A stretch of DNA of 21,964 bases from Candidatus Brocadiaceae bacterium (lineage in GTDB: Bacteria; Planctomycetota; Brocadiia; Brocadiales; Brocadiaceae), in contig JAUSDH010000177.1 of NCBI GenBank assembly GCA_030650655.1, forward strand, positions 1 through 21,964, read 5' to 3'. Under the pieces are notes generated by a model. The model was not told the origin of the DNA and ran no database searches. It was given only the letters and a program-made list of their open reading frames with translations. The translations under genes and the position numbers were made by a program. Positions 5,972 to 21,964 of this stretch are shown in pieces (the stretch's first letter is position 1; each line of letters opens with the position of its first letter).

Positions 5972-6445
5972 ATGCCACAGGAAATATTAGCAGATTTAGA
6001 GACTTTAGATTTAAACAAATCGATTGTAGACATCGAGACCATTCGCTCCATTATACCTCATCGTTACGAGATGGAGCATCTCAGCGGTATTATAAAATTC
6101 GACCCAGAACAGGGTATTATCATAGGTTACAAGGACGTTTCCCAGAATGAATTCTGGGTGCGAGGACACATTCCTGGTCGACCGCTTATGCCAGGGGTAC
6201 TCATGCTGGAGGCTGCTGCACAACTGTGCACTTACTATTATAAAATGACTACCCAAGATGATCGATTCCTGGGTTTTGGGGGTATTGATAAAGTCAAGTT
6301 CCGTGGAAAGGTTGTGCCGGGTGATAGACTCATCCTCATTGCAAAAAACAGAGAATTGCGCGCACGGAGGGCTATTTTTGATACCCAAGGTGTAGTTGAT
6401 GGAAAATTGGTGTTTGAAGGGGTCATTATAGGTATGGTAGTGTAA
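5972..6445 (+). CDS. FabZ/FabA-like hot-dog fold 3-hydroxyacyl-ACP dehydratase (stand-alone paralogue)
   Basis: 'GHIPGRPLMPGVLMLEAAAQL' has the catalytic His and Glu in the FabZ motif HxPxxPxxPGVLxxEAxAQ. 157 aa. Confidence 0.8.
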   Translation: MPQEILADLETLDLNKSIVDIETIRSIIPHRYEMEHLSGIIKFDPEQGIIIGYKDVSQNEFWVRGHIPGRPLMPGVLMLEAAAQLCTYYYKMTTQDDRFLGFGGIDKVKFRGKVVPGDRLILIAKNRELRARRAIFDTQGVVDGKLVFEGVIIGMVV

Positions 6446-7184: not shown

Positions 7185-8882
7185 CTATCGTAAATATGCC
7201 TCGGTTACATATCGACGCATCATGCGATGGCTGTTGAAATAATAGGCAATTTTGCCAATAGAATTTTTCATAATTTTTATCCACTGGTTTCTGTCGTGAT
7301 AATACATTGGGATTATGATATTTTCCAACTTATAGTACAAATCATCAGCATCTGCCGCATCGTTAATATTCGTAAGAGAAGATTCTGTAGGTTTAGGGCC
7401 AATAGACCAACCGGTTATTCCTTCGATATGCCCCTCAATCCACCACCCATCCAAAACACTGAAATTGATTACGCCATTGTGGGCGGCTTTCATACCGCTG
7501 GTGCCTGATGCCTCTCGTGGACGCAATGGTGTATTGAGCCAAACATCTACTCCTGAGACCAACTTTAATGCCATTTCTATATTGTAATCCTTTAAAAATA
7601 CGATCTTGATTTTGTCGTTAACTTTTTTTGAAAGATCGATGATCCTTTTTATGATGTCTTTGCCAGGAGTATCTTTGGGGTGTGCCTTTCCAGCGTAAAG
7701 GATCTGGAACTCGCCTTTTTCACATAGCGTCAATAGACGGTCAAGGTCTGAAAATATTAAATCGGCTCTTTTGTACGAAGTAAATCGCCTTGCAAACCCA
7801 AAAGTTAAAACATCTACCTTGATATCTATGCCTGCTGATTTATTTACATATTGAATAAGGTCTTTTTTAGCCTGGAGATGTGCTTCCCACAATTCTCCAT
7901 CCGGGATGATTTCTGAACGAACGAATAATTCTGGTTCGTTGGCCCAACCGGGAATATATTTATCATATAATTGCTTCATGCCTTCACACGTCCATGTAAA
8001 TGAATGAACACCATTGGTAATGGCATTGATTTCGTAACCAGGGAACAAGGCTTTCGATACCTCTCCGTGCTTTTTAGCGACACCGTTGACATAATTGCTC
8101 AGGTTTAACCCAAGACGTGTCATATTGAGATGATTCTCGCCTCCAAGCTTTTTTAATTGTTCCAGTGGGATTACCTCACCCATCACTTTTTTTACAAGGT
8201 CATAGGAGAATCGGTCATGGCCTGCGTCTATAGGGGTGTGTGTCGTAAATACACACAACTCTCTTACTGCATCAATATCCCAGATCCATCGCTCATCCCA
8301 GACACTTTCGATGTCCCTTTTGTACATCAGAAGCAGTTCAAGCGTCAATAAGCTGGCGTGTCCTTCGTTCATATGGTACTTTTTGATATGAAAACCAAGC
8401 GCATGGAGCATGCGTACTCCGCCGATACCCAGTACAATTTCCTGCTTTAGGCGATAACGATCATCACCACCATATAAAAAGGCAGTTATCTCACGGTCTT
8501 CTTTTGTATTTTCCTCGACGTCTGTATCGAGATAGATCACATCTACTTTTCCTCCGGTAACGCTTTGCACATTGTAACGCCAGGCCTGAATATAAACGTC
8601 GCGCCCTTCAATTTGGACCGCAATCTTTCTGGATAAGCGTATCAGAAACTTTGATGGATCCCAAACTATAGGATATTCAATTTGTCTTCCATCACTGTCA
8701 ATATCCTGACGAAAGTAACCCTTTTTTGAGAGTAGAGTGACGGCAACCATGGGTATTTTGAGGTCTGCGCCTGATTTTATGGTGTCTCCCGCGAGGACGC
8801 CCAGACCGCCGCTATAGGTTGGTATGTTGTTGGAGATGCCAATCTCCATAGAAAAATAGGCAATTTTTACTTCGTTATTCAT
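7185..8882 (-). CDS. glgP: Alpha-glucan (glycogen/maltodextrin) phosphorylase, short GT35 type
   Basis: 'IAYFSMEIG...PTYSGGLGVLAGDTIKSGADL..PMVAVTLL...GYFRQ' N-terminus and PLP-lysine motif 'EASGTSGMKAAHNG'. 565 aa. Confidence 0.9.
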   Translation of the reverse strand: MNNEVKIAYFSMEIGISNNIPTYSGGLGVLAGDTIKSGADLKIPMVAVTLLSKKGYFRQDIDSDGRQIEYPIVWDPSKFLIRLSRKIAVQIEGRDVYIQAWRYNVQSVTGGKVDVIYLDTDVEENTKEDREITAFLYGGDDRYRLKQEIVLGIGGVRMLHALGFHIKKYHMNEGHASLLTLELLLMYKRDIESVWDERWIWDIDAVRELCVFTTHTPIDAGHDRFSYDLVKKVMGEVIPLEQLKKLGGENHLNMTRLGLNLSNYVNGVAKKHGEVSKALFPGYEINAITNGVHSFTWTCEGMKQLYDKYIPGWANEPELFVRSEIIPDGELWEAHLQAKKDLIQYVNKSAGIDIKVDVLTFGFARRFTSYKRADLIFSDLDRLLTLCEKGEFQILYAGKAHPKDTPGKDIIKRIIDLSKKVNDKIKIVFLKDYNIEMALKLVSGVDVWLNTPLRPREASGTSGMKAAHNGVINFSVLDGWWIEGHIEGITGWSIGPKPTESSLTNINDAADADDLYYKLENIIIPMYYHDRNQWIKIMKNSIGKIAYYFNSHRMMRRYVTEAYLR

Positions 8883-10521
8883 TTGTATTGGGAGAAGAAA
8901 GTTTGCTCATCCTTTGGGTGAGAAAAATATTTTCAGAATAGTCAACCGGGCAATCGACAACGCTGACGCCACGTTGTTTGAGGGCATCTTGTAAAATCGG
9001 TTTTAGATCATTTGCAGACTCTACACGATAGCCTTTGGCGCCAAAGCTTTCTGCATATTTGACAAAGTCGGGATTAGAGAAGTCAACAAATGCAGACCGT
9101 CCAAAGAAATTCAATTGTTTTGATTTAATGACACCATAGCTGTTATCATGAAAAATTAATGATACGAATGAGAGACCAAGACGAGTGTCCGTTTCTATTT
9201 CCTGCGAATTCATGAGAAAGCCGCCATCACCCATAATAGCAATGACCCGCCGCTCTGGGTATACCAATTTTGCAGCGATCGCACTAGGCAGTGCAATACC
9301 CATAGATGCAAAACCATTAGAAATAATGCAGGTATTGGGTTTGTACACAGGGTACATACGCGAAATCCATAATTTATGAGCGCCTACATCGCTGATCAAA
9401 ATATCATCAGGTTTTAATACTTCACGGACATCACATAATATTTTTTGCGGTTTCATCGGAAATGACCTATCGTCGTGTGTAATTTTACATTCTTCTGTGA
9501 CAGAATTCCTCAAAATACTGATAATATGTTTTGTTTCTTTTATTCTGACCATACCAGACAAATGGTCAAGGGTTTCAGAAATTTTACCAATTACTTCCAT
9601 ATCAACATTATAATAGGCGTCTACCTCGCTCGGAGTAACGTCGATGTGAAGTATCTTCTTTGACTTATGTGGATTCCATTTGTAGGGGGGGTATTCCACA
9701 AGGTCATATCCGATAGCAATAATTAAATCTGCCTGGTCAAAACCGCAAGAAATATGGTCGTCATCCCTCAAGCCAATTGAAAGCAATGAGAGAGGACAAT
9801 CATCTGAGATTGCTCCTTTGCCCATAAACGTGGTGGCTACAGGTATATTTAATTTTACTGCAAAGTTAGTCAAAGATTCAGAAGCACACGATTGAAGGAC
9901 ACCATTTCCCGCAAGAACAACGGGATAGTTTTCATCTGAAATTAACTTCGCGGCAATTCCTAATGTCTCTTCGGTGGGGTAGGGAGTATGTGCCTCGTCT
10001 TTCAAGGGAATTGGTAGAGCTATGAGGTCTGCCTTTGCTACGTCCTCTGGAAAGTCAATATGAGTGGCACCTGGTTTTTCCATCTGGGCGAGTTTAAATG
10101 CCTTCCTGACAACCTCGGGGATAATATCGGCTGTATGGACAAGGGTATTCCATTTTGTAATGGGCTTGAATAGAGCAACGGTGTCCATATATTGATGAGA
10201 GTCCTTGTGCATACGGTCAAGACTGGCCTGTCCTGTGATAGCAACGAGAGGTACTCGATCCAGATTGGCATCGGCGACGCCCATTACAAGGTTGGGCGCT
10301 TCTGGGCCAAGTGTAGATAAACACACACCTGCCTTACCTGTCAGACGACCATAGACATCTGCCATAAAAGCAGCAGCTTGTTCATGGCGTGTTGGAATGA
10401 ATTGTATCTTTGAATCCAACAGAGAGTCGAGGATGTCTATGTTTTCCTCGCCGGGGATTCCAAAGATATAACGAACACCCTCGTTTTCCAAACATTTTAC
10501 AAGCAGGTCTGATGCCTTCAT
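8875..10521 (-). CDS. Thiamine-diphosphate enzyme, acetolactate-synthase (AlsS/IlvB)-like
   Basis: 'LVKCLENEGVRYIFGIPGEENIDILDSL', catalytic-Glu region 'RHEQAAAFMA', and ThDP motif 'GDGGFLMNSQEIET'. 548 aa. Overlaps the glgP start by 8 nt. The usual 'GPGATN' reads 'GPEAPN' here. Confidence 0.85.
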   Translation of the reverse strand: MKASDLLVKCLENEGVRYIFGIPGEENIDILDSLLDSKIQFIPTRHEQAAAFMADVYGRLTGKAGVCLSTLGPEAPNLVMGVADANLDRVPLVAITGQASLDRMHKDSHQYMDTVALFKPITKWNTLVHTADIIPEVVRKAFKLAQMEKPGATHIDFPEDVAKADLIALPIPLKDEAHTPYPTEETLGIAAKLISDENYPVVLAGNGVLQSCASESLTNFAVKLNIPVATTFMGKGAISDDCPLSLLSIGLRDDDHISCGFDQADLIIAIGYDLVEYPPYKWNPHKSKKILHIDVTPSEVDAYYNVDMEVIGKISETLDHLSGMVRIKETKHIISILRNSVTEECKITHDDRSFPMKPQKILCDVREVLKPDDILISDVGAHKLWISRMYPVYKPNTCIISNGFASMGIALPSAIAAKLVYPERRVIAIMGDGGFLMNSQEIETDTRLGLSFVSLIFHDNSYGVIKSKQLNFFGRSAFVDFSNPDFVKYAESFGAKGYRVESANDLKPILQDALKQRGVSVVDCPVDYSENIFLTQRMSKLSSPNTNE

Positions 10522-10559
10522 AAATTTTTAAATATTTCCAGACACATAATTATAGGTAA

Positions 10560-11993
10560 TTATAAATGTATTGGTTTATCAACAGCAGCATGTGCAGCCT
10601 CTAGAATTGCTTCAGAGAGAGTAGGGTGGGGATATATATTGCTCGATAGCTCAGAAGCCGTACCTTCTAAAATTGTGGTAAGTGAAATACCCCACATTAA
10701 CTCTCCCACATTTGGTCCTACAGCATGCGCTCCTAATATTTCACCGTATTTTTCATCTGCAATAATCTTTACAAACCCATCCTCATATTCTCCGTCAATA
10801 ATGGCCTTACTATTGGCAATGAGTGGAAATTTTCCCACTTTTATTTTGTATCCTTTGTTTTCAGCCTCTTCTTGTGTAAGTCCTACACTTGCTACTTGTG
10901 GAGAGCAATAGGTCACCCGTGGAATGTTTTGATAATTTATTGGGGTAGTTTCTTTGCCTGCAATGTGGGAAACGGCCCAAAGACCTTCATTTGAAGCCTT
11001 ATGAGCTAAAAGGGGAGGGCCAGTAATGTCTCCAATTGCATAGAGCCCCTTTTGGCTGGTTTCCATAACTTCATTCGTTTGCAAATATTTTCCTTTAAAA
11101 TTTAATGACAGTTTTTCTATTCCAAGATGGGTCAAGGCGGGTGTTCTACCTAAAGCCAGGAGTAAATAATCTGCCTTTAAATAGTCCTTGTTTTCGGTTG
11201 TGGTAGGGGAGTGGGGGGTATCAATCTTGCTTTTTATTTCTACACGAACGCCATTATCAACTTCAACCTTCTCTAATGAGGTTTTTGTCAGAATGTCCAC
11301 GCCTCTTTTCGTAAGTATTTTCCTTAAAGTAGCGCGGATTTCTTTGTCTTCGGCAGGAAGAACGTCATCCAGAAGTTCTACGATGGTAACTTTTGAACCA
11401 AGGATATTAAAAAGATACGCGAACTCAATTCCTACAGCACCGCCACCCGCTATAATAATTGATTTAGGAATTTCTTCTTGTAATAAGATGTTATCACTGG
11501 TGAGTACGTATTTCGCATCGTGGGGAATTGTACGAGGAATGAGTGGAACAGAACCGGTAGCCAAGATAACATTTTTTGCTGATAATTCGACAATGTCTGT
11601 TCCATTTTTTTTAATCAATACGTTATTTGCAGAGGTGAGTTGCCCTTCACCTTCAAAGACCTCAACACCATTTTTTTTGAGGAGAAATTGCGTTCCCTGG
11701 AATAATCGTTTAACGACAGACTCTTTGCGTCGATGAAACTGTGGATAATTAATTCCTAATTTATCAAAAGTAATTCCATATTCATGTGCCTTAAGTAACT
11801 TACGGTAAATGTCTGCAGAATGTAAGAGTACTTTTGTTGGAATGCAACCCTGATGCAAACACGTACCACCAACTTTATTCTTTTCGACGAGTGCAGTCTT
11901 TATTCCAAGCTGAGCAGCCTTTATAGCGGATACGTAACCGCCAGGCCCGCCACCAATGATTACAAGATCGAAGGCAGCGCTTCTCTCAGGCAA
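10560..11993 (-). CDS. lpd: Dihydrolipoyl dehydrogenase (E3 / L-protein-type flavoprotein disulfide reductase)
   Basis: 'DLVIIGGGPGGY' FAD motif, redox disulfide 'GGTCLHQGCIPTK', C-terminal 'HPTLSEA' dimerisation/His-Glu region. TTG start 6 nt after SD 'aggagg'. Confidence 0.9.
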   Translation of the reverse strand: MPERSAAFDLVIIGGGPGGYVSAIKAAQLGIKTALVEKNKVGGTCLHQGCIPTKVLLHSADIYRKLLKAHEYGITFDKLGINYPQFHRRKESVVKRLFQGTQFLLKKNGVEVFEGEGQLTSANNVLIKKNGTDIVELSAKNVILATGSVPLIPRTIPHDAKYVLTSDNILLQEEIPKSIIIAGGGAVGIEFAYLFNILGSKVTIVELLDDVLPAEDKEIRATLRKILTKRGVDILTKTSLEKVEVDNGVRVEIKSKIDTPHSPTTTENKDYLKADYLLLALGRTPALTHLGIEKLSLNFKGKYLQTNEVMETSQKGLYAIGDITGPPLLAHKASNEGLWAVSHIAGKETTPINYQNIPRVTYCSPQVASVGLTQEEAENKGYKIKVGKFPLIANSKAIIDGEYEDGFVKIIADEKYGEILGAHAVGPNVGELMWGISLTTILEGTASELSSNIYPHPTLSEAILEAAHAAVDKPIHL

Positions 11994-12122
11994 TTACCCC
12001 TCCTTTTTCCATGTGAATAATATAACGAATATCAGTGCAATAGCAATAACCATAATGGCCTTTGGACTAATATCTGGAATGATCGATTTCTCCATTGATA
12101 AAGATAATAACTTGCCTATCAT
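11994..12122 (-). CDS. Small single-pass membrane peptide (42 aa), unknown function
   Basis: Below the track cutoff; hand-translated as MIGKLLSLSMEKSIIPDISPKAIMVIAIALIFVILFTWKKEG. Near-perfect SD 'aaggaggtg' 5 nt before the ATG. Its stop TAA directly abuts the lpd TTG start. Confidence 0.5.
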   Translation of the reverse strand: MIGKLLSLSMEKSIIPDISPKAIMVIAIALIFVILFTWKKEG

Positions 12123-12162
12123 GTTTCACCTCCTTTTCAAATTAAGATTTTATGGGCGAAAA

Positions 12163-12579
12163 TCAATTATGTAAAAGATACTTGTCAGAATGAGCGACTC
12201 TGTGTAAATCCATAATATTTATAATTTTTATTTTCAACTGATACTCTTCTTGTGGATATTCTTTTTCAATCTTTTCCAACTGCGGTGAGTAACCATTCAA
12301 AACAGCTACCACATTTTTCGAGACCGCTCTGCCAACTATTTGATATCCCGTATCGGTCTTTGCGTCATAAATAGCAATAGATATATTCAGATTTTCAAAA
12401 ATATTTTCTATAGTTTTTTTGCAAAACCACGACTTGAAAGCTACATGTTTATTGTCTGATAAAAAAGTTAAATCTTTAGCAACAGCGAGGTGTACCTCTT
12501 TCTTTTGGTTTGATGTTGCCACATAAAATAGTTCAACTTTTTTACTAAAATCTCTAATTCGATTCAGAATATTTTCCAT
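12163..12579 (-). CDS. Possible pyridoxamine-5'-phosphate-oxidase-like (FMN-binding split-barrel) family protein
   Basis: 138 aa. The pattern 'VELFYVATSN..KEVHLAV.........VAFKSWFCKKTIENI.EN.NISIAIYD.....GYQIVGRA' resembles PNPOx-like small flavoproteins. Assignment by pattern only. Confidence 0.4.
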   Translation of the reverse strand: MENILNRIRDFSKKVELFYVATSNQKKEVHLAVAKDLTFLSDNKHVAFKSWFCKKTIENIFENLNISIAIYDAKTDTGYQIVGRAVSKNVVAVLNGYSPQLEKIEKEYPQEEYQLKIKIINIMDLHRVAHSDKYLLHN

Positions 12580-12619
12580 GACACAACCGTCGAACTCAAA
12601 ACCAAGATTATTATCAATT

Positions 12620-12660
12620 ATAAAGGCACATCAACAGTTTTGAAATTGATGTGCCTTTAT
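12620..12660 (-). terminator. Hairpin terminator closing the ACP-to-radical-SAM operon
   Basis: Perfect 15-bp inverted repeat ATAAAGGCACATCAA (12620-12634) / TTGATGTGCCTTTAT (12646-12660) with an 11-nt loop, 33 nt downstream of the radical SAM stop. On the transcribed strand the A/T-rich base of the stem is followed by 'aattgataataat' rather than a clean U-run. Confidence 0.6.
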
Positions 12661-12692
12661 AAATTTCATTAAGAATTCATGTTTTAATGTAT

Positions 12693-14153
12693 TTATGTGG
12701 TTACTGTTTCCATAACGGGTTTTGAAACAGGTACTGCACTTGATTTGTACCAGTCCTGATAATAATCGCCTGAATCGTATAATTCCTTTAAATTCTGCAA
12801 TACTTGTTCAAAGACCTGCTTCCAATCTGAACCTACCCTGAACGCAAACATGGAGTTTCGGGGATTCTTTGTTGTTTTAATTGAGTTTCTGAATCGTGTT
12901 CTTAGATTATCACCTGCATAAATATGGTCGTAAACATACTGCATGCCGTCAATAAAATCTTCTAATGTCATGTCTACGAAACGGTGTACCACATGGGCTG
13001 TATCGTAGTATTGCCAATCCTCTGGATAGTTTTTCCTGAAGATCCTCTTTTCTGAATCAAGTCTTGCATAGAGTTGTGTCTTGGGGAATGGACAGTTAAT
13101 ACCAAAGGTGAGAATATCAATATTGTTTTCCAATATAAATTCAGTCATTCGCTTAAAAGAATCTTTGCCATCTCCATCGGCTCCAAATACTACGGAGCCC
13201 CAGACAACCAAGCCGGCATTATGTATCTTTTGTATACAATCATAATAACTATCGGTACCCAACTTCAGATTTACACGTTTATTCATTTTCTCCAAAACGG
13301 CCTCATTCGTAGATTCTATACCGATAAGCATACCAAAATTGCCGCTCTTGGCCATATAATCTAATATTTCAGAGTCTTGAGAGATGTTTAACGCAGTGAA
13401 TCCTAGCCAATCTTTGTGTATTCCACGTTCCACCATTCCCTTGAAAAGGTCTCTCGCCCTCTCGTTTGATTTTTTACCATGACCATAGAAGTTATCTTCC
13501 GCCAACATCAATCCCTTGTAATCTGTGGCTGCCATCTCATCGAGGACATCTCCATAAGGTCTTTCCCTGAATTTTCTGCCCTGGAATGTGGGTACACTGC
13601 AAAAATCACAATAGTTCGGGCATCCTTTTGTTGTTACGATGGAAGAAAATTTATAATTGTATTTTTTCTTCAAGAATTCTCGATTTGGATATACCTTCTT
13701 CATCAAACTGAGGGGAGGTAATCCACCCTGATAGACCTTTTTCAGTTTTCCCTCTTCGAAGTCTTTTATAACCTGCGGCCACACTTCTTCTGCCTCACCC
13801 ACAAAAACAGCATCAACGTAATTTGCAGCTTCTTCTGGCACAACAGATGCATGTATTCCACCCATGATTACAGTCATGCCCTTTTTCCTGCAAGCGGCAG
13901 CAATCTTATAGGCCCTGGGTGATTGATAGGTAACCGCTGTAATACACACAAGGTCAACCGGTTTAAAAGTGATTTCGTCTTTGTCATTCATTGCTAATTC
14001 AATATTTTCGTCGATAACGTCAAATTCCCAATCACCGGGTGTAAGAGCAATAACGTAGGCAAGATTTAAAGGCATTTGGACGATTACCGTAATACTCTCT
14101 TCACCATGCCTACCCGGTTTATGTGGATTAATTAACATCATTTTTCTACTCAT
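12693..14153 (-). CDS. B12-binding-domain (class B) radical SAM enzyme
   Basis: Radical SAM cluster motif 'GCPNYCDFC' (Cx3Cx2C), preceded by a ~150-aa Rossmann-like cobalamin-binding-type domain ('DLVCITAVTYQSPRAYKIAAACRKKGMTVIMGGIHASV'). ATG at 14153 lies 11 nt after GGAGG. The track ORF begins at a TTG at 14171, which would overlap the desaturase gene by 10 nt. Confidence 0.85.
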   Translation of the reverse strand: MSRKMMLINPHKPGRHGEESITVIVQMPLNLAYVIALTPGDWEFDVIDENIELAMNDKDEITFKPVDLVCITAVTYQSPRAYKIAAACRKKGMTVIMGGIHASVVPEEAANYVDAVFVGEAEEVWPQVIKDFEEGKLKKVYQGGLPPLSLMKKVYPNREFLKKKYNYKFSSIVTTKGCPNYCDFCSVPTFQGRKFRERPYGDVLDEMAATDYKGLMLAEDNFYGHGKKSNERARDLFKGMVERGIHKDWLGFTALNISQDSEILDYMAKSGNFGMLIGIESTNEAVLEKMNKRVNLKLGTDSYYDCIQKIHNAGLVVWGSVVFGADGDGKDSFKRMTEFILENNIDILTFGINCPFPKTQLYARLDSEKRIFRKNYPEDWQYYDTAHVVHRFVDMTLEDFIDGMQYVYDHIYAGDNLRTRFRNSIKTTKNPRNSMFAFRVGSDWKQVFEQVLQNLKELYDSGDYYQDWYKSSAVPVSKPVMETVTT

Positions 14154-14161
14154 ATTTTTAT

Positions 14162-15616
14162 TTACCTCCAATTCTCCATAATTAAATTAGCTACGCTCCA
14201 CCCCGAAGAGACAACGGCACAAATCCCAGGACCTGGTTTTGTCCAATGACCTGTTAAGTATAAATTTTCAATCGGTGTCTTCTGGGGAAGCCTGTTCTCC
14301 CACATTTGGTCTACAGAGGCCTCCCAGCCATAAGCGGCTCCGTTTGTGTTTGATGTGTAACGTTCCAGGGTTTTCGGTGTAGCTGACTCTCTTACTTCTA
14401 TGTATTTATTTAAATCCGGAATATATGATTCTAATCGATTGATCGTTTGTAACGTCATACTTTCTTTAAAAGATTTCCAATCGGTAACGCTTTTATACAT
14501 CGCTTTATTCAAATAGACAACCACAGATATTATTTGTTTATTTGAAGGTGCAAGGGCAGGACATATTTTTGTTGGAACGGAGATATATAACCATTCTTTG
14601 TCCATGGTACTTGCATCTGTGGCCGTGTGATAAAACCCTCTCTTTAACTTAGTTAAATCTACATCACCTCCAACACCTAAATATAAAAGGAAAAAAGAGC
14701 AACTTTCTTTCATCCCCTCGATTTTTTTAAGGAAGGATGAATCCATTTTACCTTCTAATAAATCAATGAAAGTCTGCCGGGCATCAATATTCGACACAAC
14801 TAAGCCGGATGAAATTTCATTGTCATTCTGTAACTGAATGCCTCTTACGTAATTATCATTCAGAAGGATTTTTTTGACTCTTGATGATAGCATAACGTGT
14901 CCGCCAAAATCAATAAATTTCTTAAAAATTGCATTAGCAAACTCTTGCGTACCACCCACAGGGAAAAATGCGCCATCTTTGAGATAATTGATCATCATTT
15001 GACACATTGCAATAGCAGATGCCTGAGTAGGGGGGAGACCTATATATCCCCATTGGCCGGCAAGTATCATCTTGAGTTCGTCGTTCTTAAAAAAGGCATC
15101 TAACATCTCGCCATATGTTTGGTCCTTATATTTGTCGATAATTTGACTTTTTTCATTATTAAATGTAGCACGGTAGAGTTTTATGAAATCCTGAAAAAAA
15201 TCTTTAATATTACATTTTTCCAATAGATACCGATCCTGTAAACGTGCGATATACTCGTCCAGGTCGGCTGGAATTTCAATGCTGAAGTTGTGAAAAATGA
15301 GGTGATCCATTGGGTCGAGAGAATAGAAATCCATTTCAATCCCAAGCGTCTTAAGACAGCGACCGACAACGCTCCACTTTCCGCAACCTCCGATATGGTG
15401 AACTGCTGCATCAAAGGTAAAGCCCTTTCGCTTAAAAGAAGTACAATACCCGCCAGGAATGAAGTGTTGTTCCACCAGGAGAACTTTTTTCCCACATTTG
15501 GCAAGAAATGCAGCACACACCAAGCCTGCAATGCCTGCACCAATAATAATCGCATCATAATAAGGATATAACTTATCCTTTTTTGTGGATTGAATATACG
15601 TATCGGAAGACAGCAT
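14162..15616 (-). CDS. Phytoene-desaturase (CrtI/CrtN)-family FAD-dependent oxidoreductase
   Basis: 'YDAIIIGAGIAGLVCAAFLAKCGKKVLLVEQHFIPGGYCTSF' dinucleotide-binding motif and overall CrtI-like length (484 aa). C-terminal 'LYLTGHWTKPGPGI' FAD-binding motif. Starts 3 nt after the upstream KS-like stop. Confidence 0.85.
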   Translation of the reverse strand: MLSSDTYIQSTKKDKLYPYYDAIIIGAGIAGLVCAAFLAKCGKKVLLVEQHFIPGGYCTSFKRKGFTFDAAVHHIGGCGKWSVVGRCLKTLGIEMDFYSLDPMDHLIFHNFSIEIPADLDEYIARLQDRYLLEKCNIKDFFQDFIKLYRATFNNEKSQIIDKYKDQTYGEMLDAFFKNDELKMILAGQWGYIGLPPTQASAIAMCQMMINYLKDGAFFPVGGTQEFANAIFKKFIDFGGHVMLSSRVKKILLNDNYVRGIQLQNDNEISSGLVVSNIDARQTFIDLLEGKMDSSFLKKIEGMKESCSFFLLYLGVGGDVDLTKLKRGFYHTATDASTMDKEWLYISVPTKICPALAPSNKQIISVVVYLNKAMYKSVTDWKSFKESMTLQTINRLESYIPDLNKYIEVRESATPKTLERYTSNTNGAAYGWEASVDQMWENRLPQKTPIENLYLTGHWTKPGPGICAVVSSGWSVANLIMENWR

Positions 15617-15619
15617 GAA

Positions 15620-16861
15620 TTACGGTTTGTATTTGGAGATAATTAATGATGAATTATTTCCTAATCGCGAGAATGAGTTTATAAGGACGTTTTTGACTGG
15701 GACAGCCCGGCAGTTGTTTGGCACGTAATCTAAATCACATTCTACATCAAGTTCCTTATAATTTATTGTGGGCGGAATTGTGTGTGTTTTGATGGACATC
15801 AATGCGGCTATTGTTTGTAATGCACCCGAGGCGTCAAAACATTCACCTGTCATAGATTTGATGGCTGACACAGGGATAAGTTTTGCCCGCATGCCAAATA
15901 CCTCTTTGATAACTTTGGTTTCAAGAGCATCACCATGAACACCGGAATAGGCATTAGCAGAAATATAGGAAATGTCATGCAGTGTCAGATTGGCGTCGCT
16001 AATGGCGTTCATAATGGCTCTCTTGTTACCGTCAATTTGATATTCTTTGCTGACGGCCATTTTAGGCTCGAATGCAGTTCCATAACCCTTAACCTCTGCA
16101 TATATGTGCGCATTTCTCTTCAATGCATCTTCCAAAGTTTCAAGAATAACCAATGCCGATGCTTCGCCAATAATCATTCCATTTCGCCGCTTATCAAATG
16201 GAGCACAAATTTCCAGCGTCCCATTCTTGCTGCCAGCCAGTATCTTTGAATTATGGGAGCCCCAAAATATGTCATGGGTTAAACCATGTACGCCGCCAAC
16301 AACGACCGCCTTTACACGACCCATCCGAAGGAAATCAGAGGCATAAATAATCGCATCGATACCGCTTGTTACGCCGTTTGAAATGGTAGTATTGAGTCCG
16401 GTGGCTTTACAGAAAATAGAGGCACGGCTTGCGGGTGCATTCAACACGGTGTTAGGAAAGTCCATGGGATTGACATAACTAGGACCTTCACGCAAAGACT
16501 GGAAATCAAAGGAACTGATGCTGTCAATACTTCCATAGGTAGAGCCAACAACAATGCCTAGTTCATCACCGCTATAGGTATTATTTTCAAGGTTCGCATC
16601 TTTTATGGCAAGAACCGTTCCTGATGATACAAGGAGTGAGGTTCTATCGATATGTCGGATTCCTTTTTGACCAAGATAAATCTTGGCATCAAAATCAGAG
16701 ATTTCTCCAGCCTGTTTGCTATTAAATTTACTTACATCAAACAGGGTGACAGGTTTTATACCCGATACACCTTCGGTTAAATTTTTCCAAAAAACATCCT
16801 TGTCTGACCCGAGAGGAGAGATAACCGAAACACCTGTAATAACGATTCTCGCTTTTTCCAT
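15620..16861 (-). CDS. Ketosynthase-like protein lacking the catalytic triad (KS-beta / chain-length-factor-like partner)
   Basis: Full-length thiolase/KS fold, collinear with the adjacent KS, but Cys->Val ('TISNGVTSG' vs 'ITTACAAG'), His->Asn ('SANAYSG' vs 'SAHGTGT') and His->Glu ('KSMTGECF' vs 'KSMIGHTM'). ATG at 16861 follows 'gaagg'; the track starts one codon earlier at a GTG at 16864. Confidence 0.85.
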   Translation of the reverse strand: MEKARIVITGVSVISPLGSDKDVFWKNLTEGVSGIKPVTLFDVSKFNSKQAGEISDFDAKIYLGQKGIRHIDRTSLLVSSGTVLAIKDANLENNTYSGDELGIVVGSTYGSIDSISSFDFQSLREGPSYVNPMDFPNTVLNAPASRASIFCKATGLNTTISNGVTSGIDAIIYASDFLRMGRVKAVVVGGVHGLTHDIFWGSHNSKILAGSKNGTLEICAPFDKRRNGMIIGEASALVILETLEDALKRNAHIYAEVKGYGTAFEPKMAVSKEYQIDGNKRAIMNAISDANLTLHDISYISANAYSGVHGDALETKVIKEVFGMRAKLIPVSAIKSMTGECFDASGALQTIAALMSIKTHTIPPTINYKELDVECDLDYVPNNCRAVPVKNVLINSFSRLGNNSSLIISKYKP

Positions 16862-16874
16862 CACAAACCTTCTT

Positions 16875-18095
16875 TTATCCTGTGAACTTTTTTACAACCA
16901 GACAGCTATTGTTACCGCCAAATGCATGGGCATTGTTCAAAGCAATAGTTACCTGTTGTTTTCTCATAACATTAGGTACATAATCCAGATCACATTCAGG
17001 ATCCGGCGTTTCATAATTTATTGTAGGAGGAATGATATCGTTCTGGACAACTAATGCGCAAGTAATTGCCTCAATTGCACTGGCCGCACCCATGGTATGC
17101 CCAATCATGGATTTTATTGAACTAATTGCAAGGTTCTTGGGTTTATTCCCGAACACCTTTTTAATTGAAATCGTTTCAGCCTTGTCATTGGCAGGAGTTC
17201 CCGTTCCATGTGCGCTAACATACTGGACATCTTCAGGACTCAGGTTTGCGTTTTTTAAAGCCTTTTTCATGGCAGAGACAACACCTTCACCGTCGGGATG
17301 TGGTATAGTAATATGGTACGCATCACAGCTAAGCCCATAACCGATAATTTCAGCATAAATATTCGCATTTCTTTTTGTTGCATGGTCAAGCGATTCCAGA
17401 AGAAGCATTCCTGCACCTTCGCCCACCATCATGCCTTTCCTGTTTTTGTCAAAGGGCTGGCAGATATCAGGGGCAATAGCGCCCAGTCTGGCGAATCCCG
17501 TATAGGCAACTTTCGAAAAAGGATCCGAGCCACCGGAAAGCATCATGTCCACCCTTCCAAATTTAATCAAGTCACAGGCATATCCAATTGCATAATTACC
17601 CGCGGCGCAAGCAGTGGTGATAATCGTATTAGGACCTTTCAAGCCAAACTCAATAGCAATATTAGCCGGGATATTATTACACGGATGCATCAAAAACAGG
17701 TCAGGAGCAACTTTGTCTTCACCTTCTTTATGCCTGATATAATTGACTTTCTCCAGGATTTGTATTTCACCAGCGGTTGTTCCTACAGAAACCCCAATCC
17801 GTTCTAAATCAACTATACTCAAATCAAGCTTTGCGTCGTTTAAGACCAGCTTTGCGGCTGCTATCGCAAACTGAGAACCTTTGCCAATATTTTTAAGGAC
17901 GCCATTTTTTATATAATCCGAATAAGTAAAATTTTTAACTTCACATCCTTTATGTACCTTATAGCCTGAAGTATCTATGCACGTCACGTCGTCCACTCCA
18001 GACACCCCTGCAATAAGGGCATTCCAAAATGTGTCCTTGCCCGACCCGATAGGGGTGATCATTCCTACGCCTGTTATCACAACACGTTTATTCAT
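16875..18095 (-). CDS. fabF: Beta-ketoacyl-ACP synthase II-type ketosynthase (intact Cys-His-His triad)
   Basis: '[13 protein letters not shown]' (active Cys), '[14 protein letters not shown]' and '[12 protein letters not shown]' (both His). 406 aa. Starts 3 nt after the FabZ stop. Confidence 0.9.
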
Positions 18096-18098
18096 AAA

Positions 18099-18551
18099 CT
18101 ATACCAAAGCACTTTTTTCTGCGATGCCAAAGGTCAACGATGCCTTAGCAACGGTTTTTTCTTCAACTTTTACCGTTGCCTGAACAATAGCTCCCTTGGA
18201 GACAATTTTCTCCACGATGATTTCTATAAAGAGTTGGTCGCCGGGGAATACAGGTTTTGTAAACCGTGCATTATTAATGGATGCCAATAAAAAAACGGTA
18301 TTCTTGTCGTTTTGCTGGGTGGGAAGGCTCTTCCTGAATAAGATAATAGAAGCCTGTGCCATCGCCTCGATGATCAAGACCCCCGGCATGATAGCAAAAT
18401 CAGGAAAATGTCCGACAAAGACGGGTTCGTTGCCGGATACATTTTTTACACAAACAATTTTTTTCCCTTCTTCGAGATCAACAACCTTATCAATAAATAG
18501 AAAAGGGTATTTTTGAGGGAGAAGAGATCGAATTTCCTCAAATAGTATCAT
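18099..18551 (-). CDS. fabZ: 3-hydroxyacyl-ACP dehydratase
   Basis: 'LLPQKYPFLFIDKV' and 'GHFPDFAIMPGVLIIEAMAQAS' give the canonical FabZ His/Glu motif. 150 aa. Confidence 0.9.
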   Translation of the reverse strand: MILFEEIRSLLPQKYPFLFIDKVVDLEEGKKIVCVKNVSGNEPVFVGHFPDFAIMPGVLIIEAMAQASIILFRKSLPTQQNDKNTVFLLASINNARFTKPVFPGDQLFIEIIVEKIVSKGAIVQATVKVEEKTVAKASLTFGIAEKSALV

Positions 18552-18654
18552 CGTAAGTATGCTTTTTTTGTGTTAATCATGTAAAGTATTACTCGGTAAT
18601 ATTGCTGCACAATAATATGGCGCTCTAATTTATTTTTAAATTTTTAATAAAGTT

Positions 18655-18704
18655 TTACCACCTTTATCTACCGTTTATTAAGAAGGGTAAGTAAAGGGTG
18701 GTAA
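18655..18704 (-). other. Imperfect hairpin in the ACP-FabZ spacer (possible partial terminator or processing site)
   Basis: TTACCACCTTTA (18655-18666) pairs with TAAAGGGTGGTAA (18692-18704): 12 bp with one bulged G and a 25-nt loop. On the transcribed strand it lies 37 nt after the ACP stop and is followed by A/T-rich sequence. Confidence 0.3.
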
Positions 18705-18740
18705 TTGGTTTGTGTCTTGCTGCGCTATGTATCAAGCATC

Positions 18741-19010
18741 TTATGAGGTGAGTTTGCCGCTTTCTGCCAATACTGATTTTGTTAAATTAATTGTCGCGTT
18801 TAATGAGGTAATATCTACTAGCTTTTCTTCAGGTATCTGCACTTTGAACTTCTTTTCAATGAGTGCTAGAATTTCAAGGGCTAAGAGGGAATCTATCTCA
18901 AGGTCTTTAAAGAAATTTGCATCTCTTTTGTCCCAAATCTCCTTTTCGTCTAACTCAGTAACCTCAGCGACGATTGCGGTTACACCTTTTTCAATCTCTC
19001 CAGCGTCCAA
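18741..19010 (-). CDS. Acyl carrier protein (dedicated, divergent from housekeeping AcpP)
   Basis: 89 aa, acidic, with phosphopantetheine attachment motif 'LEIDSLLALEIL' (DSL). TTG start 6 nt after a strong SD 'aaaggagga'. The antisense 105-aa track ORF has no recognisable features. Confidence 0.85.
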   Translation of the reverse strand: MDAGEIEKGVTAIVAEVTELDEKEIWDKRDANFFKDLEIDSLLALEILALIEKKFKVQIPEEKLVDITSLNATINLTKSVLAESGKLTS

Positions 19011-19046
19011 AATTATCCTCCTTTATTAAACGACCTAAACAAAAGA

Positions 19047-19183
19047 CACATATATAACTCTGTTGATTAAGTCCCCAAAACACTCATTTTTGAAGAATAT
19101 CGATTTCGTAACCCATTGATAAAACGACACTTAATTTTTGACATTTTTGTAAAAACAGAGTTAATCAACAGATACATATATAT
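19047..19183. repeat. 21-nt imperfect inverted repeat pair flanking a 90-bp spacer in the operon leader
   Basis: Perfect 12-nt cores TCTGTTGATTAA (19059-19070) and TTAATCAACAGA (19161-19172). Arms extend outward to 18/21 matches through 'atatat' tracts. Starts 37 nt upstream of the ACP start codon. Confidence 0.6.
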
Positions 19184-19211
19184 TCATAGTAAATTGAAAA
19201 TAACGAAAAAT

Positions 19212-19240
19212 ATAGTAGCAGACATAATTTATATTGTCAA
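19212..19240 (-). promoter_or_regulatory. Candidate sigma70-type promoter for the ACP operon (TTGACA-17 nt-TACTAT on the minus strand)
   Basis: Minus-strand -35 TTGACA is the complement of 19235-19240. 17-nt spacer. The -10 TACTAT is the complement of 19212-19217 (4/6 match). This would give a ~195-nt leader containing the inverted repeat. Weak evidence in AT-rich DNA. Confidence 0.25.
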
Positions 19241-19299
19241 TAATATTCTTTAACTCGGTAGAAAAGAAATTATTAAGTATCGAAATTAAATTTAAAGGC

Positions 19300-19322
19300 A
19301 CACCATCAACTGATTGTGGTGT
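19300..19322 (-). terminator. Possible weak terminator hairpin between the hypothetical gene and the ACP operon promoter
   Basis: ACACCATCAA / TTGTGGTGT gives a 9 bp stem with one bulge and a 4-nt loop. On the minus strand it is followed by 'gcctttaaatttaattt'. Confidence 0.25.
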
Positions 19323-19590
19323 TAGTTCGTAGGTAAAAGCTTATGCTCTGATACTGGGTCTTACTGGCATTAGGGGAGGAATAAGTTCACGCCGATTGCA
19401 GCCAAAACTTAAAAATCCGCAAACCTCACGAAAGCAAAAATTTCATCGGTAGAGCAGTACACACAACCAAATTTACAACGTCTGATAATATATATTATGT
19501 TACAATAAAAAGCAGCTTTAACAAACCTTGGGTATTCGCATCTTTTTGGCTCTGTATTCCAAACTCACCTTTCATCAAAACGCAACACAC

Positions 19591-20202
19591 CTATTTTGCC
19601 TTCCTTGGTGACCTCTTTTCTGATATTGATCCATGTTGTCTGAGTTTATCCAGTGCACTTAATGCCTTATATATTTGTCTTTCTAAAATGGTCTCATATT
19701 TAGATAATTCCTCAAGCCTATTTTTACCCTCAGTTATTTTTAATGCCTTTAATTGAGATAGTTCTTTATTTGTCCTTTTTCTAGTCCTAAAAAATCCCCG
19801 CTCGTACTCTTGAATGCAAGACGACTCAAACTCTATTATTTGACTTTCTATCTTCAAACACCGTTTCAATCGCCAGATACTAGAAACTATGCGATCCACA
19901 AGAATTGATTCTATTTCTCCAGAAGGTTTTAATTCTTTTAAAAGCTTGTTTCTGATCTCGTCAAGTGCAGATGCACATTCCCCTTCTATTAATATTTCGC
20001 TGCTAAAGATATAATGCCTTGCGGTACTCTCTGCAGGTTTTACTGTTTCGGAGGTTGTTTTGCTTTCTTTACTTTCTGATTTTGGCGGGTTTGATTGCAC
20101 GGGCAGTTTAACTATTGTATTCATTATCTTATCGACCTTTTCTTTGTTGCTGGTTTCCTTATTTCTCCTACGCAAAATATCTTCTTTCAATATCGTTGCC
20201 AT
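19591..20202 (-). CDS. Hypothetical protein (203 aa): Lys/Ser/Glu-rich N-terminal half, predicted helical/coiled-coil C-terminal half
   Basis: Long ORF. I place the start at the ATG at 20202 (MATILKEDIL...), 4 nt after a strong SD 'gggagga'. The track's extra 41 N-terminal residues have no RBS. I recognise no family motif. Confidence 0.6.
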   Translation of the reverse strand: MATILKEDILRRRNKETSNKEKVDKIMNTIVKLPVQSNPPKSESKESKTTSETVKPAESTARHYIFSSEILIEGECASALDEIRNKLLKELKPSGEIESILVDRIVSSIWRLKRCLKIESQIIEFESSCIQEYERGFFRTRKRTNKELSQLKALKITEGKNRLEELSKYETILERQIYKALSALDKLRQHGSISEKRSPRKAK

Positions 20203-20465
20203 AATTCCTCCCTTTCTTGTTTCGGAAATATCCGCAGGGTAATAGTTATATTTATTCTGAACGGAAAACGAAGAATCTAAAATTAGATTTGAACATACTA
20301 TCTCATAATTGATGAAATTATTCAATAAATATTTTTAATAATACACTGATTTCCCTTATAAAATTGGAATAAATTGGGTTATAAACAACTCTGTCGTATA
20401 CAATTTAAATTATACAATAGTACGGAGCTTGCTTTACTCCCACATATTTAATAAAATTAAAATCT

Positions 20466-21101
20466 ATGAAAATTAATGAGATCTTTAAGAGTATTCAAGG
20501 AGAGACATCTTATGCCGGCCTGCCATGCGCCTTCATACGTATAACAGGTTGTAATTTACGCTGTAGCTACTGCGACACCACTTACGCTTATGAAGATGGG
20601 AAAGAAATGTCCTTGAGTACTATTCTTGAATGCATTGCAGGATTCAAGACTAAAATAGTCTGTGTTACTGGAGGTGAACCGCTGTCGAGTCAGGACACGC
20701 CCCTGCTGATAAAAGAGTTAATGAATAAAAATTATACTGTTTTAGTCGAAACAAACGGCAGCTACGATATCCGCACAATTCCTCAAGAAGCTATTAAAAT
20801 CATGGATATCAAATGCCCCGACAGCAATATGAGTCATTTCATGAACTGGCATAATATTAACTATCTGACAAAATTTGATGAGGTGAAATTTGTCTTAAGT
20901 TCACGGAAAGATTATGACTGGACGAAGGCTGTAATACATAAATATAATTTATCTAAAATTGCTCATGTGTTAATAGGAGCTGTCTTTGGTACAATCTCTC
21001 CACGATTGGTTGTGCAATGGATTTTGGAAGATAATCTCGATGTGCGATTTCAGCTCCAACTCCATAAATATATTTGGGAACCGCAAACAAGAGGAGTATA
21101 G
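20466..21101 (+). CDS. queE: 7-carboxy-7-deazaguanine synthase (radical SAM)
   Basis: 'EIFKSIQGETSYAGLPCAFIRITGCNLRCSYCDTTYA' is the QueE signature, including Cx3Cx2C. 211 aa. Confidence 0.9.
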   Translation: MKINEIFKSIQGETSYAGLPCAFIRITGCNLRCSYCDTTYAYEDGKEMSLSTILECIAGFKTKIVCVTGGEPLSSQDTPLLIKELMNKNYTVLVETNGSYDIRTIPQEAIKIMDIKCPDSNMSHFMNWHNINYLTKFDEVKFVLSSRKDYDWTKAVIHKYNLSKIAHVLIGAVFGTISPRLVVQWILEDNLDVRFQLQLHKYIWEPQTRGV

Positions 21102-21104
21102 TTT

Positions 21105-21179
21105 CGATGTATGATTTACGATGTACGATTTGCGATTTAAAGACTGAAAAATAAATCGTAACTCCCAAATCGTAAATCT
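21105..21179. repeat. Short tandem and inverted repeat cluster in the queE-queC spacer
   Basis: 14-nt units CGATGTATGATTTA (21105-21118) and CGATGTACGATTTG (21119-21132), plus partial CGATTTA (21133-21139). These are followed by two inverted copies AAATCGTA (21153-21160, 21168-21175) complementary to TACGATTT. Confidence 0.6.
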
Positions 21180-21214
21180 AAAATGTTTCTCAATTTATTC
21201 GGATAAGGATACTA

Positions 21215-21964
21215 ATGAAGGATTTAGCTATTGTACTCGTCAGCGGCGGTATGGATAGCTGCGTAACCACGGCTATCGCAAATTCACAATACCAGCTCGC
21301 TCTCTTACACGTTAATTACAGCCAGCGCACCGAATCGCGGGAGCTTAATGCCTTTTGGGATATTGCATCGTTCTACAACATTCCTGAAGACAGGATTCTC
21401 ATATCCAATATTGATTATCTCCGCAAGATTGGTGGTTCGAGTCTAACGGACTTGAGCATAAACGTTCAGGATGCTCAGTCGCATAGTAAAGAAATTCCTA
21501 CCTCTTATGTCCCATTTAGAAATACGCTTTTTTTGACCATTGCCGTTTCCTGGGGAGAGGTTATTGGGGCGAAGAAGGTATTTATTGGCGCTGTGGAACA
21601 GGATAGCCCTGGTTATCCCGATTGCAGGCCAATCTATTATGAAACCTTTAATAGGCTCATCAAAGTAGGAACAAAGCCCACAACGTGCATCGAGGTAGAA
21701 ACACCTCTTATTAGCAAGAGCAAATCAGAGATTGTGAAAATGGGCATTTCTTTAAATGCACCGCTACATCTCAGTTGGTCGTGTTACAAAAACACAGATA
21801 AGGCATGCGGCGTATGTCATAGCTGTTTCTTACGGCTAAAGGCCTTTAAAGAAGCAGGGGTCAATGATCCGATTGTTTATAGTATTGACAAGAAAACACC
21901 CCTCACCCAGACCCTCTCCCACAAGGGGCGAGGGGACTTTCCCTCCCTCGATGGGAGGGATTAA
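21215..21964 (+). CDS. queC: 7-cyano-7-deazaguanine synthase (PP-loop ATPase) with a repeat-encoded C-terminal extension
   Basis: 'AIVLVSGGMDSCV' PP-loop (SGGxDS). Zn-cysteine cluster 'SCYK...ACGVCHSCFLRLKAF'. SD 'aagga' upstream. The last ~25 aa are read through a GC-rich repeat. Confidence 0.9.
   Translation: MKDLAIVLVSGGMDSCVTTAIANSQYQLALLHVNYSQRTESRELNAFWDIASFYNIPEDRILISNIDYLRKIGGSSLTDLSINVQDAQSHSKEIPTSYVPFRNTLFLTIAVSWGEVIGAKKVFIGAVEQDSPGYPDCRPIYYETFNRLIKVGTKPTTCIEVETPLISKSKSEIVKMGISLNAPLHLSWSCYKNTDKACGVCHSCFLRLKAFKEAGVNDPIVYSIDKKTPLTQTLSHKGRGDFPSLDGRD
21897..21960. repeat. GC-rich palindromic (REP-like) element at the queC 3' end
   Basis: Sharp local switch from AT-rich to GC-rich sequence. 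Perfect hairpin TCCCTCCC-tcgat-GGGAGGGA (21940-21960). Imperfect pairing of CCCCTCACCC (21899-21908) with GGGCGAGGGG (21926-21935). Confidence 0.6.

Follow-up and report, generated by a model that had tools for sequence, protein, structure and literature searches.

A catalytically intact and a catalytically dead ketosynthase encoded side by side in an anammox genome correspond to the amxFabF2/amxFabFmut pair of a putative ladderane gene cluster

What is the role of a ketosynthase that has lost all three residues of its catalytic triad? The question is raised by two adjacent genes on a 21,964-nucleotide stretch of contig JAUSDH010000177.1 from a Brocadiaceae bacterium, here called the window. 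The first gene encodes a ketosynthase (KS) with an intact triad, KS1, and the second a KS-fold protein, KS2, in which the active-site Cys, His and His are replaced by Val, Asn and Glu. An earlier note on this DNA, made without database searches, had proposed a heterodimer in which the dead subunit shapes the acyl tunnel in the manner of a chain length factor (CLF). From sequence comparison KS1 and KS2 are identified as amxFabF2 and amxFabFmut of the anammox 'Cluster I' (kuste3603-3608). The probability that they form an obligate heterodimer of the putative ladderane pathway, in which KS1 is catalytic and KS2 tunnel-shaping, is put at roughly 0.9. How ladderane lipids, some of the most unusual natural products, are made has yet to be solved. 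The features of the pair are:

16875-18095, minus strand: KS1 (amxFabF2), predicted catalytically competent ketosynthase, 406 amino acids
17607-17609, 17208-17210 and 17097-17099, minus strand: catalytic codons of KS1 for Cys163, His296 and His333, coordinates checked
16920-16922, minus strand: gating Phe392 of KS1, assigned together with Lys328 by codon check and alignments
16862-16874, minus strand: spacer between KS1 and KS2, with a putative Shine-Dalgarno-like AAGAAGG before the GTG-ATG start
15620-16864, minus strand: KS2 (amxFabFmut), predicted dead ketosynthase or CLF-like subunit, 413-414 amino acids
16370-16372, 15953-15955 and 15842-15844, minus strand: codons of KS2 for Val164, Asn303 and Glu340 at the former triad positions, coordinates checked
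within KS2, minus strand: Lys335 and Arg399, assigned by alignments
16457-16459, minus strand: Phe135 of KS2, which with Thr138 and Val139 is matched to tunnel positions of Brocadia fulgida

The two proteins are homologous end to end (35% identity, E 8e-82) and both contain the N- and C-terminal ketoacyl-synt domains of Pfam. All six motifs quoted in the earlier note are found verbatim in the translations. Residues were assigned with three independent alignments (HMMER against B. subtilis FabF 4LS6, MAFFT with E. coli FabF, and MAFFT with 130 sequences). All three confirm that KS1 and KS2 correspond at the catalytic motifs with the changes Cys to Val, His to Asn and His to Glu, Val164, Asn303 and Glu340 lying opposite the catalytic Cys, His and His. 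KS1 has kept every catalytic and gating residue (Cys163/His296/Lys328/His333/Phe392, CHKHF). At the same columns KS2 has Val164/Asn303/Lys335/Glu340/Arg399 (VNKER), in which Lys is kept and the gating Phe is an Arg. The Gln typical of CLFs is also missing from KS2, as had been stated, the position being occupied by Val164. Against the curated FabF models KS2 scores 324.7 with a cut-off of 493.75 (TIGR03150) and 317 with a cut-off of 387 (NF005589). KS1 scores 469 and 450, respectively, and passes the subfamily cut-off alone.

The genes are adjacent, as claimed, and tightly linked without overlap. The KS1 stop is separated from the KS2 start by 10 nucleotides if the GTG is used, giving 414 amino acids, and by 13 nucleotides if translation begins one codon in at the ATG at 16861, giving 413 amino acids. 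The ATG is more likely the true start because 413 amino acids is the length of the KS2 orthologues. In other anammox loci the spacing varies from a 4-nucleotide overlap to about 100 nucleotides.

Cluster I identity is assigned because KS1, KS2 and the products of two neighbouring genes, an acyl carrier protein (ACP) and a FabZ-type dehydratase, match solved structures that are anammox-specific. In a PDB search KS1 matched 9S5H chain B (E 3e-249) and KS2 matched 9S5H chain C (E 1.5e-242), each over its full length; 9S5H and 9S5I are the amxFabF2/amxFabFmut heterodimer of B. fulgida. The top PDB matches of the ACP are 7AUF (E 2e-44) and 9S5I chain E (E 9e-42), and those of FabZ among anammox structures are 8AYD (E 3e-76) and 7QV0 (E 8e-60). 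A synteny scan with one genome per species gave 24 anammox loci (Wunengus, Brocadia, Jettenia, Loosdrechtia, Kuenenia, Scalindua and deep Brocadiia), and the order ACP, FabZ, KS1, KS2, CrtI-like oxidoreductase and radical SAM enzyme is held in every one whose contig is long enough. The window proteins are 82-90% identical to those of the Brocadia, Jettenia and Kuenenia loci, and KS2 is 61-67% identical to the Scalindua and deep Brocadiia orthologues. On record they are MDO8744969.1 and MDO8744968.1, from a Candidatus Wunengus/Brocadiaceae metagenome-assembled genome (MAG), and are named just 'beta-ketoacyl-ACP synthase family protein'. They thereby gain a secure annotation.

The deviating sequence itself was already described in 2009; the heterodimer mechanism and its structures followed in 2026. 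Table 2 of Rattray et al. 2009 (PMC2649909) gives Kuste3606 as Val163/Asn298/Lys328/Glu333/Arg392, the same set as in KS2, and a different substrate or function was suggested there. Javidpour et al. 2016 (PMC4790861) termed Kuste3606 a 'non-canonical FabF'. The K. stuttgartiensis and B. fulgida orthologues were studied in a preprint of May 2026 (bioRxiv 10.64898/2026.05.19.726425), on which the following account is based. amxFabF2 and amxFabFmut co-elute and co-purify as an obligate heterodimer. Neither protein alone has activity or can be cross-linked; together they decarboxylate malonyl-amxACP to acetyl-ACP and form acetoacetyl-ACP. With alpha-bromoacyl-ACP probes only amxFabF2 is cross-linked in the heterodimer. 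The B. fulgida heterodimer was crystallised both free and cross-linked to C8-ACP, and the structures have one functional tunnel that starts at the intact triad and has walls from both subunits, including Phe135, Thr138 and Val139 of amxFabFmut. The ACP docks at the amxFabF2 entrance. The heterodimer favours C6-C8, and Phe135Gly/Val139Gly mutants of amxFabFmut have an altered preference among C6, C8 and C16 probes. A second tunnel leads to the mutated site; from it no catalytic triad can be reached, and no docking of ACP is predicted where it opens. An electrostatic asymmetry of the interface (helix-loop-helix/helix), taken from three-dimensional surface potentials, is said to disfavour homodimers.

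Two details of the preprint concern the reading of coordinates. It places amxFabFmut 'just upstream' of amxFabF2, whereas the dead gene is the downstream one of the pair in the window as well as in each of the 24 anammox loci. Its amxFabF2 tunnel residues (Ala110, Ile112 and others) could not be mapped reliably to KS1 and were set aside, the numbering being offset by 2 and internally inconsistent (His333 and His335 are the same residue). Only the Cys, His, His and Phe positions were used from that numbering (offset +2).

The KS/CLF-like heterodimer with a tunnel-shaping dead subunit that the earlier note had proposed has thus been demonstrated on orthologues that are about 88-89% identical (9S5H/9S5I), and sequence-only reasoning reached the conclusion later given by crystallography. 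The statement that KS2 cannot condense agrees with the inactivity of isolated amxFabFmut and with the finding that, of the two subunits, only the intact one is cross-linked to probe-loaded ACP. At this identity the window proteins can be expected to behave in the same way. KS1 and KS2, produced from adjacent genes of one operon, would assemble as an obligate heterodimer with a single active site. KS1, with its Cys-His-His, would take the acyl chain from the cluster's own ACP, decarboxylate malonyl-ACP and perform the Claisen condensation. KS2, having lost all three catalytic residues, would do no chemistry, and KS1 activity would depend on it. The helix-loop-helix of KS2 (residues ~105-145, including Phe135, Thr138 and Val139) is predicted to wall the acyl tunnel that starts at the KS1 active site. 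KS2 would help to set the accepted chain lengths because its motif forms part of that wall.

The formation of acetyl-ACP from malonyl-amxACP by the heterodimer would also be expected if KS2 were a dedicated malonyl-ACP decarboxylase, that is a priming subunit of the KSQ or classical CLF type and not a tunnel-shaping partner. Such a role is very improbable. The Cys position holds Val and not Gln, both histidines needed for decarboxylation are lost, the orthologous KS2 has no decarboxylase activity alone and KS1 holds everything that decarboxylation requires.

Across the 130-sequence alignment the triad is intact in every KS1 orthologue and missing in all 24 anammox KS2 orthologues. The residues at the former triad positions of KS2 are Val/Asn/Glu in Brocadiaceae, Thr or Val/Cys/Glu in Scalindua and Glu/Asn/Asp in the deepest lineage. 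Compared with its closest relative (dS 0.25), KS2 has a dN/dS ratio (nonsynonymous to synonymous substitution rate) of 0.072, and comparisons at greater distance give 0.035-0.043; the ratios of KS1 are similar. Purifying selection on KS2 is strong, and the gene is not decaying. Because of this selection and the lack of a triad in 24 of 24 anammox orthologues, the loss is due neither to chance nor to local degeneration.

The absence of all three catalytic residues, together with the 450 bits of KS1 against the NCBIfam FabF subfamily cut-off of 387, might be taken to mean that KS2 is a functionless, decaying FabF duplicate beside an ordinary homodimeric FabF. There is next to no chance of this. 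The reading frame is intact in all 24 anammox loci with dN/dS of 0.04-0.07, an identity of 61-67% is still held to the Scalindua and deep Brocadiia orthologues, and the orthologous KS1 is inactive without KS2, with which it co-purifies.

Conservation within KS2 is highest at residues 61-80 and 101-160, the latter being the helix-loop-helix that forms the interface and the tunnel wall, and is relaxed in the segments of the former catalytic motifs. KS1 has the reverse pattern and varies least at the Cys and second-His motifs. All 74 KS2-like sequences examined have Phe135, and the window KS2 has Phe135, Thr138 and Val139 at the exact B. fulgida residue numbers. Such a distribution of conservation is expected if KS2 has been retained for a structural, tunnel-shaping role.

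Strong conservation could in principle also reflect a different chemistry. Rattray et al. 2009 (PMC2649909) had the idea that the non-canonical FabF links a ladderane unit, made separately, with a short linear acyl chain, and KS2 might do so, or might use another nucleophile such as Cys341. This residue, next to Glu340, is the same in all of ten anammox orthologues, the wider family retains Lys335 and an acidic side chain at 340, and there is the second tunnel to the mutated site in the B. fulgida structure. That tunnel is, however, the one without triad access or predicted ACP docking, and the isolated orthologue has neither activity nor a cross-link to alpha-bromoacyl-ACP, the adduct in the heterodimer being on amxFabF2 only. 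The residues at the former triad positions moreover vary among orthologues (V/T/E, N/C and E/D), which is unexpected for a catalytic site, and conservation peaks in the interface motif and not around the former active site. A separate chemistry of KS2 is therefore unlikely, if somewhat less so than decay or a decarboxylase role.

Several points weigh against the heterodimer with a tunnel-shaping KS2 as a component of ladderane synthesis. The evidence for heterodimer formation and activity is all from orthologues, and its source is a preprint without peer review (10.64898/2026.05.19.726425). According to that preprint acetoacetyl-ACP was the only product of the orthologous heterodimer in vitro and C6 was not elongated, which leaves a non-physiological cross-linking assay as the basis of the chain-length preference; the link between Cluster I and ladderane synthesis is a putative one. 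The interface segments are nearly identical to those of B. fulgida in the alignments of KS1 and KS2 to the PDB chains. When charged residues in these two segments were simply counted from sequence, the electrostatic asymmetry described in the preprint did not appear. The count is uninformative without a three-dimensional model and was discarded. The earlier claim of a chain-length-controlled product stands in part: the effect on tunnel and preference holds for the orthologue, where acetoacetyl-ACP is the only product seen, control of product chain length is a well-supported inference, and the physiological product would be the short linear part of a ladderane lipid.

The remaining genes at the locus are given below. 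The ACP, FabZ, KS1, KS2, CrtI-like and B12-binding radical SAM genes form a run in one direction, with the ACP gene first.

18741-19010, minus strand: amxACP-type acyl carrier protein, 89 amino acids, Pfam PP-binding
18099-18551, minus strand: amxFabZ-type 3-hydroxyacyl-ACP dehydratase, 150 amino acids, NCBIfam FabZ
14162-15616, minus strand: CrtI/phytoene-desaturase-family FAD oxidoreductase, equivalent of kuste3607, Pfam Amino_oxidase and NAD_binding_8
12693-14171, minus strand: B12-binding radical SAM enzyme, equivalent of kuste3608, Pfam Radical_SAM and B12-binding
19591-20325, minus strand: conserved hypothetical open reading frame (ORF) 5' of the ACP gene, 244 amino acids, cluster membership uncertain
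12163-12579, minus strand: small ORF directly 3' of the radical SAM gene, with a weak, sub-threshold PNPOx-like match

The CrtI-like gene holds the same place in all complete anammox loci; the match of its product to the NCBIfam model crtI_fam falls under the cut-off of that model. For the radical SAM protein the best NCBIfam model is rSAM_ladder_B12, with a score far under the cut-off, and orthologues with 73-94% identity are found at the equivalent position in anammox loci. The 244-amino-acid ORF has no Pfam match. Counterparts (52-64% identical) are found in the same position in the Brocadia, Jettenia and Loosdrechtia loci and were not detected in the Kuenenia or Scalindua loci, and the ORF may be a lineage-specific accessory gene of the cluster. 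The PNPOx-like ORF was rejected as a member, as no homologue was found 3' of the radical SAM gene in other anammox loci, and it is probably outside the conserved cluster.

A promoter and terminator scan of 11900-20500 gave counts not above those in shuffled sequence, and an internal terminator is neither supported nor opposed by it. A TTGACA-17-TACTAT sequence upstream of the ACP gene (19240-19212, minus strand) is a promoter candidate only. Scans of the window for tRNA genes and with Rfam gave no matches. A second dehydratase gene of the FabA/FabZ fold (5972-6445, plus strand, 157 amino acids; Pfam FabA and a weak ApeI-like match) is situated about 6 kb from the cluster, on the opposite strand and adjoining rplM/rpsI. 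In the Kuenenia hertensis locus L012 a FabZ-like ORF, 31% identical to the cluster FabZ, is found downstream of the cluster. The downstream flank (7185-11993, minus strand) contains housekeeping genes for an alpha-glucan phosphorylase, an acetolactate-synthase-type thiamine diphosphate (ThDP) enzyme and a dihydrolipoyl dehydrogenase. In the upstream flank (20466-21964, plus strand) two ORFs look from their translations like QueE and QueC of queuosine precursor synthesis.

Active/dead pairs are also found outside anammox bacteria. About 55 non-anammox MAG loci (L025-L080, e.g. L035:6001-11522, L033, L027 and L037) have a KS2-like dead ketosynthase that is 41-51% identical to KS2. Most are from Candidatus Omnitrophota, and some are labelled Nitrospirota/Thermodesulfovibrionales, Planctomycetia or Desantisbacteria. 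The dead triad is here Phe/Tyr, then Asn/Ser/Gly/Thr/Cys, then Glu, with Lys kept and the gating Phe changed to Pro. The neighbours are an ACP, a FabZ-like protein, an intact KS1-like protein (51-59% identical to KS1) and often a CrtI-like protein; a close homologue of the B12 radical SAM enzyme is absent from these loci in the same genome scan. In the Omnitrophota-type clusters the dead gene precedes the active one, opposite to the order in the anammox loci. The L035 cluster also encodes an aminotransferase, a HAD phosphatase and an alpha/beta hydrolase. In two loci (L071:3917-6802 and L077:2603-5984) the order is FabZ, intact KS, dead KS, and the dead KS has Gly/Ala/Ser/Tyr, the conserved Lys also being lost, which makes it a degenerate partner of another kind.

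An exhaustive search gave the closest 150 families of KS2 (50%-identity representatives), most of which are dead. Many of these dead families are the C-terminal half of fused proteins of about 820 amino acids. P0151, P0153, P0157 and about 50 others (~790-860 amino acids) have a KS with intact Cys-His-His at the N-terminus and a dead KS at the C-terminus. As 'Rosetta stone' proteins, the fusions support the pairing. One member of a fused-protein cluster, NVM52546.1, is from a MAG labelled Candidatus Helarchaeota (an Asgard archaeon). In P0053, encoded on an ENA contig of 2,503 bp, the N-terminal two thirds resemble KS2, whereas the C-terminal third resembles KS1 and has intact His motifs; the protein is probably an artefact of assembly that fuses the two neighbouring paralogues, and not a genuine recombinant.

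A crude neighbour-joining tree, without bootstraps and from a sample picked by similarity to KS2, placed KS2 in an all-dead clade of 185 sequences and KS1 in a sister clade of 96 sequences, all intact. In most members of the dead clade Lys335 is kept and the residue at the second His position is acidic. All 24 KS2 sequences from anammox bacteria fell into one clade in this tree, with the Omnitrophota type as the nearest large neighbour. Candidatus Scalindua has a second pair (L081:3092-7224 and L082:3124-7221) with, in this order, a radical SAM enzyme 54-55% identical to that of the window, an intact KS 48-49% identical to KS1 and a dead KS with Phe/Asn/Lys/Glu. The arrangement matches Kuste2803-2805 in Table 2 of Rattray et al. 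2009 (PMC2649909). The Kuste2805-type dead KS was placed further from the anammox KS2 clade in the same crude tree. Judged from its sequence, the Scalindua/Kuste2804-Kuste2805-type pair may be a second KS/CLF-like heterodimer.

The chances appear even that the active/dead FabF pair predates anammox and that Cluster I consists of an older FabF-derived KS/CLF lipid module to which anammox bacteria added a radical SAM step. In the preprint the cluster is said to be unique to organisms that produce ladderanes, and amxFabFmut to be the first chain length factor known from a fatty-acid pathway; no phylogeny is given there, and homologues outside anammox, fusions and Kuste2805 go unmentioned (10.64898/2026.05.19.726425). 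If the pair is older than anammox, 'chain length factors in fatty-acid-type pathways' would be widespread and not a first, and the Kuste2804/Kuste2805-type pair (Phe/Asn/Glu) would be predicted to heterodimerise too. The wider distribution is only partly new because clusters labelled 'ladderane' by antiSMASH were earlier noted in Omnitrophota and other phyla (bioRxiv 10.1101/2022.12.20.521206). What is new is modest and concerns the evolutionary context, namely the pairs outside anammox, the fused forms and the invariant tunnel Phe. With this context it may become easier to tell which part of the pathway is generic and which is specific to ladderanes. The active/dead ketosynthase pair is one of few components of the candidate pathway with a mechanistic description.

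The likeness of the window pair to known systems is closest for amxFabF2/amxFabFmut themselves (KustE3605/KustE3606; Broful02171/02170). The dead Val/Asn/Glu, Phe135/Thr138/Val139, the operon order and the ACP and FabZ neighbours are all shared. The window copy differs in that it comes from Candidatus Wunengus, has about 11-12% of its residues changed and is known here from sequence alone.

Canonical homodimeric FabF (E. coli b1095 and B. subtilis 4LS6) has the same fold and length, and the identity to E. coli FabF is 38% for KS1 and 32% for KS2. It is a homodimer, whereas the anammox orthologues form an obligate heterodimer with one active site, and KS2 differs from it in the lost triad and in falling under both curated FabF cut-offs. 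In HMMER comparisons KS2 scores 263 bits against B. subtilis FabF, 241 against amxFabF2 and 138 against the actinorhodin CLF (1TQY_B). Because of the 263 bits against FabF and 138 against the actinorhodin CLF, judged from relative HMMER scores and not from a tree with CLFs of polyketide synthases (PKS), KS2 appears to derive independently from FabF. It is best described as a FabF paralogue that would have lost catalysis independently and now have a CLF role, outside the actinorhodin and aryl-polyene CLF families.

The kinship proposed in the earlier note with the type II PKS KS-alpha/KS-beta and aryl-polyene systems is therefore upheld as a functional likeness and not as a phyletic one. The actinorhodin pair ActI-ORF1/ORF2 (1TQY) similarly has adjacent active and inactive KS genes, a heterodimer with one active site and an inactive subunit that lines the acyl tunnel, the pairing having been seen in orthologues in the case of the window proteins. 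It differs in the Gln of the CLF at the Cys position, where KS2 has Val164, and in its substrate, a poly-beta-ketone and not the reduced acyl chain of the anammox system. Cyclase and aromatase genes are absent from the window, where the genes around the pair encode FabZ, a CrtI-like desaturase and a radical SAM enzyme. The aryl-polyene CLF (ApeC type) has about 240 amino acids, whereas KS2 has the full-length FabF fold, and when KS2 was compared by BLASTP with the 240-amino-acid protein of E. coli CFT073 annotated as 'beta-ketoacyl synthase chain length factor', no similarity was detectable (E 1.7).

In function KS1/KS2 come nearest to highly reducing type II PKS pairs, for example Iga11/Iga12. 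These pairs (ishigamide Iga11/Iga12, 6KXD-F, and aryl-polyene ApeO/ApeC) have in common with the window a FabF-like KS with a dead partner, a FabZ-like dehydratase and reduced or unsaturated chains. The score of KS1 against Iga11 (339 bits) is near its best FabF score (366). Among structures, the closest neighbours are Iga11 for amxFabF2 and B. subtilis FabF for amxFabFmut (10.64898/2026.05.19.726425).

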